A stretch of 64,000 nucleotides of DNA, from assembly GCA_051362555.1 (NCBI GenBank), contig CM120642.1:6200001-6264000 (forward strand), in the 5' to 3' direction. The position numbers and the translations under genes were made by a program. This stretch comes from Lingula anatina. Lineage: Eukaryota > Animalia > Brachiopoda. Below the pieces are notes generated by a model. That model saw only the letters and a program-made list of their open reading frames with translations, was not told the DNA's origin and did no database searches. Below, one piece after another: positions 1-50,244 of this stretch (position 1 is the stretch's first letter; every line of letters starts with the position of its first letter).

Positions 1-187
1 CCCAGGTGTCACAAAGTGTGTTAAAACTCACATTCATGCATGGTACACCACATCTGGGTCTTTTGTTCTAGCCATCTACCATGGTTTTAAAAACATATAA
101 ATATACTAAAAAATGACCAACATTAAATTTTACTGTTTTCGTTTTACAAAACTTGTCATTCAGTGAGATGTATCTCTATTGTTTCAG

Positions 188-256
188 GTCTCTCCATTGT
201 GCACGGGGCGTGCAGGTGCGTGTGTGGTTCACATACGGCACACACAGCTCATTTGA
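188..256 (+). CDS. KLHL5: Terminal coding exon of a kelch-like (BTB-BACK-Kelch) protein of the KLHL1/4/5 group; upstream exons lie outside the window
   Basis: Acceptor ...tattgtttcag|G at 187/188. The phase-0 reading VSPLCTGRAGACVVHIRHTQLI* closely matches the last kelch repeat/C-terminus I recall for KLHL5 (VAPLCLGRAGACVVTVKL*) and KLHL1 (GRAGACVVVIK). This frame is absent from the supplied ORF track. Confidence 0.85.
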   Translation, partial: VSPLCTGRAGACVVHIRHTQLI

Positions 257-484
257 CAGGAGGCTTGCGGGTCACGGTACGGGGCCTCGCTGTGGCCCGC
301 AGATGGAAAATGCAGGATCTCCCCGGCTCAGAGACGCAGCCCCCGTCTCACCCCCGCGCTACCTCTAAATTCCATATTCCTGGCCAATGAGAGTGACTCT
401 TCTGGATCAGAGGGGGAGCTGTTCAAGAGGTCTTTACAAATTATAAAAGAAGAACAGCCCCCACCTTTGGAGACGGCACTTTGA
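257..484 (+). CDS. Putative in-frame C-terminal extension (75 aa) of the KLHL5-like protein beyond the TGA stop (readthrough or alternative acceptor isoform)
   Basis: Open in the same frame from 257 to TGA 482-484: QEACGSRYGASLWPADGKCRISPAQRRSPRLTPALPLNSIFLANESDSSGSEGELFKRSLQIIKEEQPPPLETAL*. GC-rich compared with the downstream UTR. Contains LxxIxE and C-terminal E-T-A-L motifs. Confidence 0.6.
   Translation, partial: QEACGSRYGASLWPADGKCRISPAQRRSPRLTPALPLNSIFLANESDSSGSEGELFKRSLQIIKEEQPPPLETAL
265..302 (+). promoter_or_regulatory. RNA stem-loop 8 nt 3' of the TGA stop; candidate readthrough-stimulating element
   Basis: UUGCGGGUCACGGU (265-278) pairs uninterrupted with GCUGUGGCCCGCAG (289-302): 10 Watson-Crick and 4 G-U pairs. 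Loop ACGGGGCCUC. Confidence 0.6.
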
Positions 485-2299
485 AGAAGAAGTGTATCTT
501 AGAGACGCTGCTCTCATTTCCACAGTGTTAACATGGCTTCCAAACTTGCACACTCAGAGGAAAATTTCCTTCGAAAAATTCTCACACAGCTTGCTATGTG
601 ATCCAAAAGTCTTTTGCTGTAGTGGGAAGATGTTGCCAGCTTCCATTTTGATTGGCTGTGAATGGCCTTTTAGAAGTGTATCAGGCTGTCATTTATAGTG
701 GAACTGTGCTGCCATCTATATTTGAAAACTGGTTTCACTTTACCATTAGTGTGCATTATGGTCTTTCAGAGAATTGAAGATGGCCCTGGTAAAACTGCAG
801 TTTACATTCAGCTGTTATGTCTTATCTTTTAGTACTTTCCAACTGACATCATAGAAGGGTTCATGTTGAAGATATTTCTTTTCCGTCAAACATTGTTAAC
901 ATCTGAAGCTGTGCTTCGTTGTTGAAGTATGCACCCATGCACCTGTTCTGAAATATGCAATCAATTTTTAAGAGTGCCTTTCTTGAATGCACGGCGTTTC
1001 CACACTCGTCTTCTCAATACTGACAGAGTCAGTTTATACACGCTTTTCTGATTGTGATCTCAATCTTAATTGTTTGAGTGATATGGTTTACAGGTGAAGA
1101 AAAGTGAAGGGGAGAGGGGAAAAATGATGCAGTGGGCAGTAATGATGAAGAATGTGATTTATATTGATATCATGTTCTAATGAGGATGAAATACTCTCTT
1201 GTTATTATATTTATTAGCGTCTGATTTTGCAGCATAATTAGATCTGTCCATGAAGCTTGGGAAGAACTAAGTACAGGAGAGCTGGTATCTTCTAAAATAT
1301 TCACATATTTTTTAAAAATCTCATAGTGAAACTCTAGTGAAAGAATATTTGTATGTATTATGAAAGATCAGTCAGACGACATTTGGCTGCATTTTGGCAA
1401 TAATTTAATGACCTTTGTTCAAGTAGTCTGCTATGGGACAGAGTAGAAAATATTTTATTTCAAACTTTGAACATAAGCCCAGCAAATCAGAGCAGTCATG
1501 ATAGTCTTATGCGTTTGATGATTGTTTGGCATATTTGTAGCATTAAATGTGCTGAAGAATCTAGACTCAGCAGCTAGTTTTTTCGTTACCCATGCTTTTT
1601 TGATTTAGCTTACTAACAATTGGTAGGGTGTAATCCACTTAAGTGAAGTAGCCAATTTTGATGTATGCCTGAATCCTTCTGTGAAGGAAAAGTTTCAAAA
1701 CATGTCATCTGTAAATACTGCAAGGTCATCCTTGCCATCTTGTTATAGTTAATATCAACAGGTTATGGCTTCTTTTGTAAATATGTATTATACTTCATCA
1801 AGCAATAAGTGGTGAAAGCAGGTGTTTTTTATTCTGGAGAATGTAAGGGAGTTTTAATTTCCAAGGTGATCTGATGAAGAGAAAAAAAATTGAAAAAGGT
1901 CAAGCAAAGGCAGCTTCAGTTAAGTAAGGGAACATTTTAGGCTCAACAGATTTAACCTAGGGAAGTATAAGATTTTGAACTTAGTACCCAAAGATGTGAC
2001 AGTAGAGACAGGTAATTAGTGATGTTATTTTCATCCCCAAACATTTCAGAATATATCCTCTTTTTGGTCAGTAAACCCCAGTTGCTGTGAAATGGAGAAC
2101 CATTCTGCACCGCGGGCTAGAGAAGAGCAGTTTCACCAGTGATATTGGGGTATATTTCTTTGTTTTTCATTTTATGATAGTTTAAAATTCAGTTTCAATC
2201 ATGGACAGAACGGACAGGCTGCTTTTGGTGGCTTTTTGACATATAACTAGGACAAAGCGCAAGTTTACTGCAACTTTTGTCTTCATTGTTATGATGCAG

Positions 2300-2583
2300 G
2301 GACCTGTATCACACAAAAAGTTTTTGAACTTAAGTTTTACTGCTAAAGTTGGACAGCAGTGCAGTCCACTTTCCCGTATTGACTTAGGAGCTTTACGAAA
2401 GATGGTCCACAATAAATGTATTTGAAATTCCTAAATGGGCTAAAGTTGCCACTGAGACCATCACAATGCATGTATGAGGCTAAGAAAAAAGACCAAAAAT
2501 AAATTGAGCAGCCTTTGTGTAACACGATTTGGGCTAAGATTTCAGTCTAAAAGCTGACTTGAGACTTTTTGTGAAATGGGTTC
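2300..2583. mobile_element. Degenerate MITE (PIF/Harbinger-like, CWG target site) in the KLHL5-like 3'UTR
   Basis: Imperfect terminal inverted repeats GGACCTGTATCACACAAAAAG ... CTTTTTGTGAAATGGGTTC flanked by CAG/CTG. Similar termini occur at 24500-24769. Confidence 0.5.
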
Positions 2584-2877
2584 CTGCTGTCATACCAAGT
2601 TGATTTAAGAAATCCATCAAAAGTCACTAGGCAGCCAGAATAGAGGCACCGTTGCTCCTTAAGATATCTGGTCATGTGCTAACACATTTAAGACCTCTTT
2701 GCAGTCAAGAATATTTCTTGTCTAAACACATGATGTCAAGAGGTCATATCAGTATTTCATTGGTCTATATGTTGTGTCAAGTGCAACAAATGCTTTGACC
2801 CCCTCAGTCGTGTTTCTCACAAGTGCAATTGTATTTGTAAACTGTTATAACATTATATGAACACAGTTAAATTTAGT

Positions 2878-2920
2878 AATAAAGTTTCAAAATATATTAC
2901 GTTTTTGTTTGTGTTTGTTT
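2878..2920 (+). terminator. Polyadenylation signal of the KLHL5-like gene
   Basis: AATAAA at 2878-2883 followed by a GU/U-rich downstream element GTTTTTGTTTGTGTTTGTTT at 2901-2920. Confidence 0.65.
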
Positions 2921-3909
2921 AAAGAATGCAATCATATCTATATAACAGTAAAACTATCACGTGGCTTTCACTAAATTTTGCAGTTTATCAGTTGTCTGAA
3001 ATATCTAGGTCCATCAGCAAATGATTAACATGTTCCAAATTGATATAAGTTGATGGAAAGGACATCAACATTTGAAAATGAATAGATTTGCCTGCAAAAT
3101 AAAAAATGAGACCTGTCATGTTCACTTTGTAATAATACTAAGCATGAATGTGTGTTTAGAATTGGATATTGTAAATGGCACAGCTCTCTCTGGCCATTAT
3201 GCTACAGTACGTGTCCATCAATTTAAATTACATATCAAAACTTACCTGTCATCTAAACATCCTGGTATTTATATCTCTTTAATGAGAATTTTGCAATGTG
3301 CAATGATGGTACAAAAAGTCTGGCAATATATGGTAGTTGTGACAGCTACTACATATCCCCTTGCTTTGAAAGAGCCATGGATACGTTAAGGTTTATATTA
3401 AACTATAATACTTAGTAGAAATGAACATAACAATAGCTCCAGTCAAGCATGTATTTATGCTACAAATACAGCAACGTACATATATACAATAAGTATGTAC
3501 ACTTTTAAAAATAAATTTAAACTTTATAACATAAAGAAACATCAATGTAAAACTGTACAAAATCACAGCATTTTAAGTTTGGTGTTTTGGCTCCTTTTAA
3601 GTGTCTCTCTCCAGCCTCCCTTCCTCCCCCCCAAAAGAAAAAAAAGTTTTTAGTATACTATTCATTGGTCCCAAACTATGACAATGTTCTCAACTCTCTT
3701 TTTAAAAAACCTGGTCATTTCACCTTTAAAATATGTATTTATAATAATGATTGGACTTTTCATTACAATTGTATTAAATGGATTTCTGAGATCATATCAC
3801 AGATTAATGTCAGTACAGTGCATGTGGCCACAGGGTAATTGTCTTTGTTAAGAAATCTTGGAAAATTTCTGCATGTAGCCCTGTAAATCGTAGGCCTGGA
3901 ATTCAGAAG

Positions 3910-3957: not shown

Positions 3958-41702
<37,745 letters not shown>

Positions 41703-46044: not shown

Positions 46045-48936
46045 TCAAACAGTACCTAGAGTTTTGATTTCCATATCGTGGGAAGACTTCTTGTAAAAAG
46101 TATTTGTGAAATGCTTGAATTTCTTTCTGAGGGATTTTTTCTTCTCTCTCAACAACGATTGGTCATTTGCAGCATTTCTAGCCACATTAGTAATGCTAGC
46201 AGATGGCTTTGCAACATCTCTGTAAGCCACTTCTCTGATATCCTTCACGGAAGAGGCTCTACCATTTGGTATCGAGGAGGAGTCCTCTGGGCTGGTAATC
46301 CCAGAATCCCCATCATTTCCTTGAATTAACGGCTGGCGGAACCCATTTGTCCCGTTTGGCTGCTGTCCAAGGTATTTGAGGTTTTCAGCACTGTATGACA
46401 TTTGATGAATTTGAAACTGTTTGAATCTCTTTGGCATCTGGTATTGGTCCCAAGGCGGGAAGTCTGAGTACTCGTCAGTACTGGCCATGGCGTAACTTAG
46501 GCGTGATCCACTCGAATCAGTTGTCACGTAGCTAAACCTGGATGCGTAGCTGAGTCTGGACCCCGTAGAGTCTGTGATATTAGAGTAGCTGAGCCTGGAA
46601 CCACTGAAACTGAGTCTGGAGGCATAACTGAGTCTGGAACCCGTGGAATCCGTCATAGCCGAGTAACTGGAGTAGCTGTAACGCGATCCACCAGAGTCCG
46701 TCATTATTGGAGAATTAACTGGGACAGGCAGCCCAGAGCTGTCAACACTGAAGGGGCTTGCTGTGCCTGCAGAGGGAGGGGGTGCCAGCAACATCCCACT
46801 GTCTAAGATGGATGTAGGCGAAGAAAGTTTATCTGCTATATCCTGAAACTCGTTGTATGAAGATCGCGAGGAAGGGGACGACAACAGGCTTGTGTCTGGG
46901 AGAGAATCCCTTGTAGCATCCATGGATGATACACTTCCACAGTCAGATAGATCCCCAGGGTTGGTTCCATGCCCATCAGTCAGAGTCCCTGATTGATAGT
47001 CATTGTCAATATCTGATTGGTCAGTTGTTGATGGGAGGGTGGAGCCTCCTTGGATTGTTGATCCTGATTGGAAGGAGGTGCGGCTTATTCCACGTCTAAA
47101 GTCACTGTCAATAGTTCTTGTCACCGAGGTTGTGTCTGAAATATCTGAACCTTCTGACGACGCATCTGAGCCATTGGAACCCTCAGAGTCAGAAAGATCA
47201 GAGCTCCCATACTCATACCATTCTCCACTACCTATAAGAGACATCCTGTCTTGAAGGTAGTAGGAGCAGGGTTCTCCCAGAGCAACATGAAGGGCGTGAT
47301 CTGGGCAGCGGTAGTGCTTGGGATGAATTTCCTTCAAGAAACCACTCCTCCTGTTGATGTGGTTGCGTCTGTTTGGATGAATAAGTTGCTTTTCAACCTG
47401 GTCAAACAACCTGGAATTGTCACTGTATGTGTCATCTGAGTCGGCATTCCGTGCCCAGTTGTTGCCACCATCATCAATTGATGATATTTCGGACAGAGAA
47501 TCATCAGCTGCATCAGGGTGTATCTGTCCATTGTTAAGTCTATAGCTCCCAGGGGATGCTAGTGGTGCTTTCTCGTTGTTATAAATTATATGTTTGGGAG
47601 GCCTTTTAGGGGGAGTGCTGGTATCTGAGATCTGAACAGGGAACCTTCTTGGTGGCAGTGGAGGAGGAATGTCTTGATTAACAACTCCATCTGATGGCAA
47701 ATGCCCGGAGTGATTTGTATGGTAGGCTGTATCAGGGACAAAAGTGTTCTCATGAAAACTCAGTCTACCTGTACTGTGAGTGTTTGTGCTCTCAGACGAG
47801 GATTTGCGCAGCAGTGGCGGCTTATGGGCATGGATGCTATCCAGTATATTATCCATGGCTTCAGAGATACCATCGGTAATGGAAGATTTACGCTGATCTG
47901 GAGACCTCCCAACTTTGCTTTGGTTTGTGGAGTCGACAGAATGTGGTGGTGGGGGTACATCTCTGTACTGCACTGAGGTGCTATCTTTCAAGCATGCTTT
48001 GAGATGAGAAGGCTTGGGGGGTCTAGGTGGCTGGGGTGGAATGGGTTTGGCTGCAACTGGGTTCCTGGGTGGACGGGGAGGAGGGGAAGAAGAGGAAGAT
48101 GAAGAAAGTTTGGGGGGCCTTGGGGGAGGGGTGCAGGAAGTTGATTTTGGAGGGCGTGGTGGTGGCTTTTCTGCACTGAAAACCTCATCTTGCGATAAGT
48201 TATTGAGTTCATGGTTAGCCACAAGTGTTTCATCCTTGCTTCCAGATCCATATGGAAGTAGTTTAGGTTTGGGTGGTCTTTCAGGTTTGGCATCTAATAC
48301 CACTAAATGTCCTGATCCCTGTGATTGAAAGTCATTATGGGAATCTGCCATATTGTCATTCACAGTGTCTGCAGAGTGGGAATGAGAACGCTGTCTACCA
48401 GAGACGTGTTTGCGATGATGCTTTGAATGTTTTTTATTCACAGGGTAATATTCCTTGTCCAGGTCATAACACTCTAAACCAGGCTCAAAATCATTGTCAA
48501 TATCCATCTCCGAGTCAGAGTCATAATATTTCATTCCTGGCTGGTAGTTCTCTTTTTGTTCGGTACCTGAGCTTTCGTGGCCAATTAAATCGGAGTCTGA
48601 TTTGGCAGATGTATTTCTCACTCTAGGTCTCGGCCTAGGTGAATCTTTGGTATAGACTCTCAGTTTTTCCCGAGGATGTTTGTAATTGGAATTCATGTCT
48701 CTCTGAAGTCTCAGTGTGTTCCTCCAGGCACGTGCTTCAAGTTCACTGTCACTTCCACACTCTTCACGAGATTCTTTGATTCTTTCCAGGGGCTTTTTGG
48801 AGTTTGAATCAGTATTCATGTTGGCCATTTTCTGGAATTCTGTGCTTTTCTCACACTCTTTCAAAAGTTCTAAGAATTGTTCTTTGATTGAACGGATTTC
48901 AAGACGCAGGGCTAGCTCATCACGGATGTTTCTCAG
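46045..48936 (-). CDS. Large terminal exon (963 codons + stop) of an uncharacterised, mostly disordered Ser/Pro-rich protein
   Basis: 2.9-kb uninterrupted ORF in AT-rich DNA with acceptor tttcctttcag|CTG at 48937. No recognisable globular or transposon domain. Confidence 0.88.
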   Translation of the reverse strand: MRNIRDELALRLEIRSIKEQFLELLKECEKSTEFQKMANMNTDSNSKKPLERIKESREECGSDSELEARAWRNTLRLQRDMNSNYKHPREKLRVYTKDSPRPRPRVRNTSAKSDSDLIGHESSGTEQKENYQPGMKYYDSDSEMDIDNDFEPGLECYDLDKEYYPVNKKHSKHHRKHVSGRQRSHSHSADTVNDNMADSHNDFQSQGSGHLVVLDAKPERPPKPKLLPYGSGSKDETLVANHELNNLSQDEVFSAEKPPPRPPKSTSCTPPPRPPKLSSSSSSSPPPRPPRNPVAAKPIPPQPPRPPKPSHLKACLKDSTSVQYRDVPPPPHSVDSTNQSKVGRSPDQRKSSITDGISEAMDNILDSIHAHKPPLLRKSSSESTNTHSTGRLSFHENTFVPDTAYHTNHSGHLPSDGVVNQDIPPPLPPRRFPVQISDTSTPPKRPPKHIIYNNEKAPLASPGSYRLNNGQIHPDAADDSLSEISSIDDGGNNWARNADSDDTYSDNSRLFDQVEKQLIHPNRRNHINRRSGFLKEIHPKHYRCPDHALHVALGEPCSYYLQDRMSLIGSGEWYEYGSSDLSDSEGSNGSDASSEGSDISDTTSVTRTIDSDFRRGISRTSFQSGSTIQGGSTLPSTTDQSDIDNDYQSGTLTDGHGTNPGDLSDCGSVSSMDATRDSLPDTSLLSSPSSRSSYNEFQDIADKLSSPTSILDSGMLLAPPPSAGTASPFSVDSSGLPVPVNSPIMTDSGGSRYSYSSYSAMTDSTGSRLSYASRLSFSGSRLSYSNITDSTGSRLSYASRFSYVTTDSSGSRLSYAMASTDEYSDFPPWDQYQMPKRFKQFQIHQMSYSAENLKYLGQQPNGTNGFRQPLIQGNDGDSGITSPEDSSSIPNGRASSVKDIREVAYRDVAKPSASITNVARNAANDQSLLREKKKSLRKKFKHFTNTFYKKSSHDMEIKTLGTV

Positions 48937-50244
48937 CTGAAAGGAAAAATTATAATAATTAGTCAAGATATAAATCTCTACAAACATCAGATGGATCCAG
49001 TAAGGATATTTGTAATTTTTTTAAAAATAAAATTAGAAAAAAATTTGATGTGAATTTGATCTTTATCCCTTGATTTATCTTCGACTTCATTTATAACTTT
49101 CTTTGATGAGGCTAAAGTAATGTAGTTATTTGACTAGAAAAAAATTACCCAAAGCAAACCCAGAAATTCATGAATTACCTTCATTTTCACTCAAACAATC
49201 TCGAAAAAATCTGCATCAGAACACTAGTGAGATACAAACTCAGAGTGCTAGACGCTACTCCACAACTGATCTGTTCACTCATAAGTTATTCATAGTTTTA
49301 AAACAGGCCCAGTATGCCTGGGCGTAGATCAATAAATAGTTAGAGGTTTGTACAATGGTAATATGTCAATGGCCCCAATTGTTTAACATTACTCTCACGC
49401 TTGTGTCCCAAAGACTTGTGTATTATAAGTAGCTCCATTAGGCAAGAAACCAGTGGAAATATTGACCCTAGCCCTATGACATGTTATTATAAAGTTTTCG
49501 CCCATTGATATTTTACCACAGTTATGCATAATGAATAAGAACACATTTATTTTCTTGGCTATAATAATTTCTATCTAAGAAGAGTGGAATGGCGTGAATG
49601 TTAGTGTAATTGATTTTGGGAATTAGTTAAAATATCTGAGGTAAATATTAGGACAAATGATCAAAGAATAATTGGGCCAACCTTCTGTGTGAACAAAGTT
49701 TCCTTTCCATTATTTCTTTTGCCACAGAACTGCTTATTCATATTTTTAATTGATAGAAGTTTTTCATTTGCGTGGCAAAAACAACCATCGTTATTTTCAT
49801 TCATGGATTTAAAAATGTAACAATTATTTACCCAAGTTGGAATATCTATTTTGAGATCCGTTTGGCAAATATTATTTTGGGTTCTATAGATACACATCCG
49901 TTTGATGATTGTTTGTAAAGGAAATGAGTTCATTTCTCTAGAAATAGTCCCGTTTATTGAAAAAAGCGAAACTGTGCAGACATAACAAGCACATTGTTAG
50001 TTTTGTTACATGTATACTTAGAGCAAAAGGATCAGAAATTAGTGACCAAATGCTGAGACTTAAGACTTGTGATTTGGGCAATTTTTCAATCATATACTAA
50101 TGTTTATCAATTCGTCATCATGCATGACAGATATATATATTTCAGTTCTCTTTTCAATCTTTTTAAAATATCAAGGGTCAAATTGATAACTATCAGAAGA
50201 CAGAGCAAGGTTTTGTTGCTTCCAAAATGATCACTGCATCATTC

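Follow-up and report, generated by a model that had tools for sequence, protein, structure and literature searches.

Probable stop-codon readthrough of KLHL5 in the brachiopod Lingula anatina, with annelid-type orthologues that would open a different and longer tail

The annotated reading frame of Lingula anatina KLHL5 ends at a UGA-C stop that is probably subject to structure-assisted readthrough, giving an isoform 76 residues longer. The gene displays the sequence-level hallmarks of programmed readthrough, namely a leaky stop context, a transcript in which the stop is not spliced out and in-frame constraint behind it. Orthologues that group with annelids have TGA-CT followed by a long coding frame, and as judged from their sequences these very likely use readthrough; they are a stronger case than the Lingula gene itself. 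All positions below refer to the window, the 64,000-nucleotide stretch of Lingula anatina DNA that was analysed, unless a locus is named; the features are collected in Table 1.

Table 1. Positions of the features discussed, in the window or in the locus named.
Feature	Position	Strand	Basis or remark
KLHL5 last-exon splice acceptor AG	186..187	+	upstream exon joined there in 103 RNA reads
Last 22 codons of KLHL5, end of kelch repeat 6	188..253	+	identity to P0003
CAG CTC (Gln-Leu), aligned with TGA CTN (stop-Leu) of 11 annelid-type loci	245..250	+	
First stop TGA with C at +4; annotated protein end, likely readthrough site	254..257	+	sequence
Spacer of 8 nt between stop and stem	257..264	+	predicted fold
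Predicted hairpin: 14-bp stem 265-278/289-302, four G-U pairs, 10-nt loop	265..302	+	fold prediction
Weak larger fold around hairpin (257-262 with 377-382; 303-308 with 370-375)	257..382	+	prediction
In-frame 75-codon extension, Ser/Pro/Glu-rich, ends SLQIIKEEQPPPLETAL	257..481	+	ORF reading
Tail region IIKEEQPPPLETAL			part of the window's extension
L-Q-I-I-K-E-E, fits PP2A-B56 docking consensus LxxIxE	434..454	+	sequence
C-terminal E-T-A-L, class I PDZ-ligand pattern	470..481	+	sequence
Synonymous third-position variants in tail	367, 388, 391, 394, 454, 460, 469		
Amino-acid-changing variants in tail, both mild	374 Ile->Val; 438 Gln->Arg (free motif position)		
Second stop, TGA-A	482..484	+	sequence
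3' UTR; AATAAA at 2878-2883	485..2890	+	RNA depth ends just behind AATAAA
Annelid-grouping second frames	L001:2184-3863; L018:5429-7255; L041:2630-4369; L033:3751-5055	+	
Annelid-grouping second frames	L060:3310-4611; L062:4485-5807; L071:12174-13472; L072:6965-8236	+	

The window starts within an intron, and behind the AG at 186-187 the exon frame VSPLCTGRAGACVVHIRHTQLI can be read up to the TGA at 254-256. Its residues are all identical (22/22, 100%) to the C-terminus of P0003, which carries the NCBI name Lingula anatina kelch-like protein 5. The kelch region is 77-87% identical to at least 119 other matches listed, the named ones being KLHL5, KLHL4 and KLHL1, and in a quick version of a tree the parent protein groups with vertebrate KLHL4/5. 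An initial sequence-only reading had proposed a kelch gene of the KLHL1/4/5 group; from the identity to P0003 and the tree placement we assign 188-256 as the final coding exon of KLHL5, one of the BTB-BACK-kelch proteins of that group. The HTQLI-TGA in a UGA-C context described in that reading is indeed present. Five of the six members of the P0003 cluster terminate at this TGA, and the sixth model enters another frame. Counted from the start of GRAGA, 16 residues remain to the protein end in the window, compared to 12-15 in most of the 120 best-listed relatives. Since orthologues end near the same place, the protein normally ends at the TGA of 254-256, which on the same grounds is no recent nonsense mutation. 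No variant falls in 254-257 among the differences listed for the RNA and contig runs of the species. GC makes up 0.56 of 257-481, against 0.58 of the kelch exon and 0.40 of 485-760.

Variation within the species supports translation of the frame behind the stop. Nine differences are listed in 257-481, seven of which are synonymous, against 29.5% expected from the transition bias of the UTR (P 0.004), a test that rests on few sites (n=9), all within one species label. By this measure, the interval is under protein-coding constraint in this frame. The other two plus-strand frames over the same interval have one synonymous change in nine each, and in a control in which the frame was extended over 485-760, 9 of 27 variants lie at third positions. 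If only those contig runs are used for which the list is complete (three), 6/8 are synonymous (P 0.010); in the worst case, with ten further X18 differences beyond those listed all amino-acid-changing and all located in the tail, P would be 0.32. The three variants in the kelch exon are all synonymous. Variant sites are also sparser in the tail (9 in 225 nt) than downstream of it (26 in 276 nt; P 0.02), with no indels in the tail versus four in the next 276 bases, and nine variant sites crowd into the 36 bases (487-520) right behind the second stop. Frameshifts or stops across 257-481 in orthologues had been named at the outset as what would speak against readthrough; within the species, the differences listed for eight runs include neither an indel nor a new stop in this interval. 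At 438 the window reads A, but every run with depth reads G, which points to a rare allele or an assembly error.

The frame remains open for 75 codons up to the TGA at 482-484, and the tail length of 76 residues given in the sequence-only reading is correct if the recoded stop is counted. There is no in-frame ATG in 257-481, so a downstream open reading frame with its own start was rejected. Frames of this length are not rare: 75 codons stay open in 211/3000 shuffles of 257-481, in 73/3000 of 257-760 and in 15/3000 of the UTR, and 4 of 26 control KLHL5 loci (three distinct) have a frame of more than 75 codons behind their stop. Since shuffles and control loci are open too, length alone is weak evidence, and the case rests on the variants and the orthologues. 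Two of the open controls (L002:2013 and L003:2100) are arthropod-like KLHL5 genes with TAA-CTG, 102 open codons, a GC content of 0.33 and a UTR-like appearance; the others are L012 (121 codons, repeat) and L020 (128 codons, GC 0.50).

Two short motifs can be recognized in the tail. Its last four residues fit the class I PDZ-ligand pattern (S/T-x-hydrophobic), an end found in 2.9% of residue shuffles. Further upstream, a match to LxxIxE, described as the PP2A-B56 docking consensus in the accessible text of PMC7108865, is followed by acidic residues and occurs in 4.3% of residue shuffles; its second position reads Arg in all eight runs with depth, which keeps the consensus match. A loose B56 match together with a PDZ end is found in 0.6% of shuffles, for motifs that were chosen after seeing the sequence, and loose LxxIxE matches by themselves in 20%. 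No relatives of the tail were detected: a protein search returned P0003 alone, via its kelch part, a search of 1.84 billion representatives gave four matches, all to unrelated repeat proteins, and Pfam assigned no family.

To the orthologues we applied a profile scan with 29 aligned KLHL5 proteins, which kept 80 of 103 confirmed metagenome loci; 37 of these 80 reach the kelch end, and the other 43 were left out. In 11 of the 37 (nine distinct), a TGA-CT precedes 422-607 open codons, two of these frames running off the contig, so the TGA-C that the sequence-only reading had proposed to look for in orthologues is kept there together with a coding frame. Among the remaining 26 loci, 24 end in TAA or TAG and two in TGA-T or TGA-A, with 2 and 4 open codons. 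The quick tree, which included eight of the 11 long-tail loci, puts these in a clade (99) with molluscs, nemerteans and Lingula, within which a weakly supported group (83) joins them with Lamellibrachia and Helobdella, both annelids; five of the eight join Helobdella with a support of 96, three of these rows being less than half filled. The placed loci include no brachiopod, phoronid, nemertean or mollusc DNA. KLHL5 was absent from the prokaryote and viral contig collections.

The annelid-type tails can be aligned from first to last codon, sharing Leu at +1, CxC, K..R..T.T, NP.Y, SW.G and RCPTPPR.LS and ending in ADI, GDI or ADV. All ten pairs among five of these loci have dN/dS values of 0.19-0.29. 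Conservation starts at codon +1, and the first Met lies at 14-146, in a position that is not shared. L001 is an intron-free contig with the whole KLHL5 frame and the tail, and its stop is unspliced. Two proteins, P0133 and P0140, have been gene-called with Trp at the stop, GACVVH continuing straight into the tail. The tail profile matched ten database proteins, one of them L001's own, none of which is named or has a Pfam family (a Pfam search of three of the ten likewise gave no family); for P0137, the ESM Atlas returned only matches under 0.8, which are uninformative. At the N-termini of P0135, P0139 and P0141 there is an apparent translated splice acceptor just before GC[TI]ExEY, a hint that some species may have an intron about 10 codons behind the leaky stop. 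The P0139 model does not stop at the usual ADI but adds a Trp and about 55 more residues, with a hydrophobic stretch among them; in this gene call a second TGA was probably taken for Trp. The KLHL5 models P0100 (Helobdella) and P0118 (Diretmus) overrun the usual end by 16 and 24 residues, through a lost stop or a model error.

The Lingula tail does not resemble these long tails. Against a profile of 17 annelid-type tails it scores -2.7 bits, which places it at 381 of the 407 rows scored when ranked with shuffles of itself, and homology was rejected on that result; no copy of an annelid-type tail occurs elsewhere in the 64 kb window. A shared LxxIxE was dropped as well, the loose matches being at different places and missing from several tails. 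The idea that conservation would extend up to the ETAL end thus failed in the orthologues reached by the profile test. With no homology between the tails, the orthologues support the readthrough site and not the window peptide. In the alignment, the window stop lies three codons later than the annelid-type stop, and 245-250, where the latter would fall, is possibly the site of an older leaky stop. On one reading, the old leaky stop would have mutated to sense, and just behind it another UGA-C would have arisen along with a hairpin of its own; the other reading is an independent origin of the window stop, accompanied by a three-residue insertion. Tentatively, readthrough of the KLHL5 stop may be ancestral to lophotrochozoans and kept since the brachiopod/annelid split, the stop having moved by three codons and the tail having been wholly replaced. 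That split dates to the Cambrian. If this were true, selection would keep making a second, tailed adaptor pool, independently of fly kelch, and a conserved annelid region of 420-610 residues would be missing from KLHL5 gene models.

The alternative that survives best is that the 75 codons are the untranslated, GC-rich start of the 3' UTR, retained for a function at the RNA level or as a relic of an older tail, with the frame and its motifs due to chance. The open frames among composition-matched shuffles and control loci, the loose LxxIxE matches among shuffles and the lack of homology to the annelid-type tail would all agree with it. We nevertheless regard it as unlikely, because an RNA element or relic would not give such a preponderance of synonymous variants in one frame, because variants and indels crowd directly behind the second stop, and because in the annelid-grouping relatives a coding tail follows a leaky-type stop of the same gene.

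Translation of the tail by readthrough requires that the mRNA retains the stop. Of nine RNA runs under the species label, five were mapped, using 6-26% of each, and of eleven contig runs three. Read depth runs unbroken from 188 to about 2890, and no joints are reported, so the transcript crosses the stop unspliced. In three stranded runs nearly all first mates map to the minus strand, which in most libraries corresponds to plus-strand RNA. The reads that carry the upstream exon as a loose end at 186/188 come from X11 (36), X12 (46), X17 (7) and X18 (14). It is very improbable that the tail is coding but is reached through an acceptor at 258-259 joining the previous exon in frame to 260 and skipping the stop, an option that had been raised from the sequence. 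The TTGACAG/G there does offer a CAG/G consensus in phase with the acceptor at 187. However, among the joints and loose ends listed for the five RNA runs, for which at least three reads are needed, there is none at 258-260, compared to 103 reads spliced to 188; the pyrimidine tract is weak, with 4 T in the 19 upstream bases versus 10 T for acceptor 187; the product would have no conserved GRAGACVV segment to close the propeller; and the relatives are conserved from the first codon after the stop. The contig of run X8 over 186-416 is spliced at 188 and is transcript-derived, although labelled DNA with a question mark. Opposite-strand RNA is present at low depth at about 2355-2570 and 2780-3200.

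Recoding of the UGA to a Trp codon by A-to-I editing, or insertion of selenocysteine, would suit the use of UGA in every case and the double-stranded RNA adjoining the stop, but is highly improbable, given that X18 has no A-to-G change at 256 at the 5% level and its five A-to-G sites are all elsewhere, that none at 256 is among the 40 of 272 difference rows listed for other runs, that the 3' UTR SECIS element of a selenoprotein was not found by Rfam models, which may miss divergent elements, in window 1-3200 or in 5 of the 11 long-tail loci, and that the stop at 254-256 is unpaired in the predicted fold.

Readthrough of the UGA as such may be assisted by the RNA immediately downstream. The sequence-only reading had described a stem of 14 bp after an 8-nt spacer, and fold prediction reproduces it with 14 stacked pairs, so that the stem is predicted to start within the 7-12 nt after the stop seen in structure-stimulated readthrough. 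Folded in a 300-nt context, the 11 core pairs form with a probability of 0.89-0.9 and the three end pairs with 0.52-0.80. A helix of at least 14 stacked pairs arises in 1/2000 dinucleotide shuffles of 257-316, whereas the energy is matched or beaten in 114/1000 shuffles and, separately, in 12/200 (z -1.88); the length of the hairpin is thus rare, but its energy is not. None of 234 60-mers from the downstream UTR folds as well as the hairpin region. A larger fold around the hairpin has pair probabilities mostly of 0.7-0.8 (one 0.44) and an energy no better than that of shuffles (z -0.42); the variant at 374 would preserve its pair there as U-G. The stem contains no variant among the differences listed. 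From the stop to the end of the stem (254-304, fixed beforehand), variants are found in 0/17 codons compared to 10/81, which is not significant (P 0.13); a wider variant-free stretch, 224-366 (0/47 codons, P 0.001), has borders picked post hoc and is not counted as evidence. Among the relatives, 4 of the 7 folded have a stem at the expected spacing. These are the four folded loci of an eight-locus annelid-type group with TGA-CTA, in each of which a long stem starts at most 12 nt after the stop (z -2.4 to -5.8); covariation across the eight-locus group is thin, 3 of 45 pairs being changed on both sides. L001, L018 and L041 have no unusual stem (z 0.23, 1.36 and -0.17).

The variant pattern in this frame and the annelid-type orthologues support the readthrough that had been proposed from the sequence, which we consider probable. 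Ribosomes would pass the KLHL5 UGA-C part of the time. By analogy with fly kelch and viral precedents, a hairpin at the mRNA entry channel would hinder release-factor action, and a near-cognate tRNA would be inserted at the UGA; near-cognate tRNAs at UGA are those for Trp, Cys or Arg. The efficiency may depend on the tissue and would probably be highest in neurons. In the weakest step of this scheme, the tail would be disordered and carry its motifs behind the kelch propeller. Through ETAL it might tether this share of the Cullin-3 adaptor to PDZ scaffolds, and through LxxIxE to PP2A-B56, both putative ligands by pattern match, and it might alter the location or stability of the adaptor rather than its fold; such a tethering or stability role is doubtful on present evidence. 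In annelid-type genes the same stop would open a different tail of 422-607 codons, and the conserved hydrophobic last residue of these tails would fit binding of a terminal motif.

The window gene groups with KLHL5 and KLHL4 in a tree that does not include fly kelch, which we take to belong to a separate KLHL subfamily. In vertebrate genes, readthrough reportedly occurs at a UGA-CUAG motif. The eight-locus group shares TGA-CTA with it, whereas the window has TGA-CAG-G, and the full CTAG occurs in none of the loci; the vertebrate tails are also far shorter than those of the annelid type. As far as the accessible text of PMC3159437 goes, fly kelch (ORF1/ORF2) resembles the window gene in being a BTB-kelch Cullin-3 adaptor with a UGA right after the last kelch repeat and a 14-bp stem after an 8-nt spacer, and it shares a long second frame with the annelid-type loci. 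The two differ in that fly kelch has UGA-AUG and a 268-nt loop and the window UGA-CAG and a 10-nt loop (PMC3159437; 10.1101/2020.06.22.165522, accessible parts), and in that readthrough of fly kelch has been measured, at about 30-70% in the CNS, whereas that of the window gene is predicted from its sequence. According to the accessible parts of the same two sources, neurons can show readthrough of tens of percent, with levels near zero elsewhere. For fly kelch and for stem-stimulated viral UGA-C readthrough, a stem about 8 bases behind the stop is described to hinder termination (PMC3159437, in part). The MuLV pseudoknot has the same 8-nt spacing as the window stem, and alphaviruses and tobraviruses/furoviruses share with the window the layout of UGA-C and a 3' stem after a 7-12-nt spacer; the viral UGA-C stems enclose loops of about 100-150 nt, whereas the window has a predicted compact local hairpin in a cellular animal gene (PMC3159437, in part).

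According to the accessible part of PMC5100048, abundant readthrough was found only in Pancrustacea among 52 species tested, a Platynereis neuropeptide being the one proposed lophotrochozoan case. The insect and crustacean cases there rest on the same type of evidence as ours, namely leaky context, coding signature and variant bias, the last having likewise been applied to mosquito readthrough regions; in contrast to the abundant readthrough within Pancrustacea, the window is a single-gene case outside that group. Neither KLHL nor mollusc or annelid is mentioned in the main text of PMC13278127. In the open-licence literature, among the top-ranked papers and with fly candidate tables outside the coverage, we found no report of readthrough of KLHL1/4/5. 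The fly orthologue of KLHL5 is presumably CG17754. It was not found in two of the three supplementary files of PMC5100048 or in two short ones of PMC3840789. As far as these searches reach, the mechanism is known from fly kelch, and the gene group and the phyla are new.

In the literature covered, readthrough is barely documented in lophotrochozoans, and KLHL5, a conserved Cullin-3 adaptor, provides a concrete and probable example from two phyla. The annelid-grouping tail roughly matches the annotated protein in length and is absent from the listed KLHL5 models. Two separate kelch adaptors with readthrough directly behind the propeller would suggest a recurring route to a second, motif-bearing ligase pool. 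With 76 residues and two recognizable motifs, the Lingula tail is an easier test case than that of fly kelch.

Elsewhere in the window, an exon of a tetratricopeptide-repeat gene (TPR_1, E 6.7e-9) lies at 7510-7947 on the minus strand, tail to tail with KLHL5. Also on the minus strand, 46045-49020 holds a 991-codon open frame that is rich in Pro and Ser, with repeated SRLSY units, a basic end and no Pfam match, and is probably the large last exon of some gene. Long perfect or near-perfect microsatellites of an ordinary kind occupy 23173-23327 (AG x77), 30416-30521 (CT/CA), 32423-32564 (CA x71) and 39547-39644 (AAAT x24).
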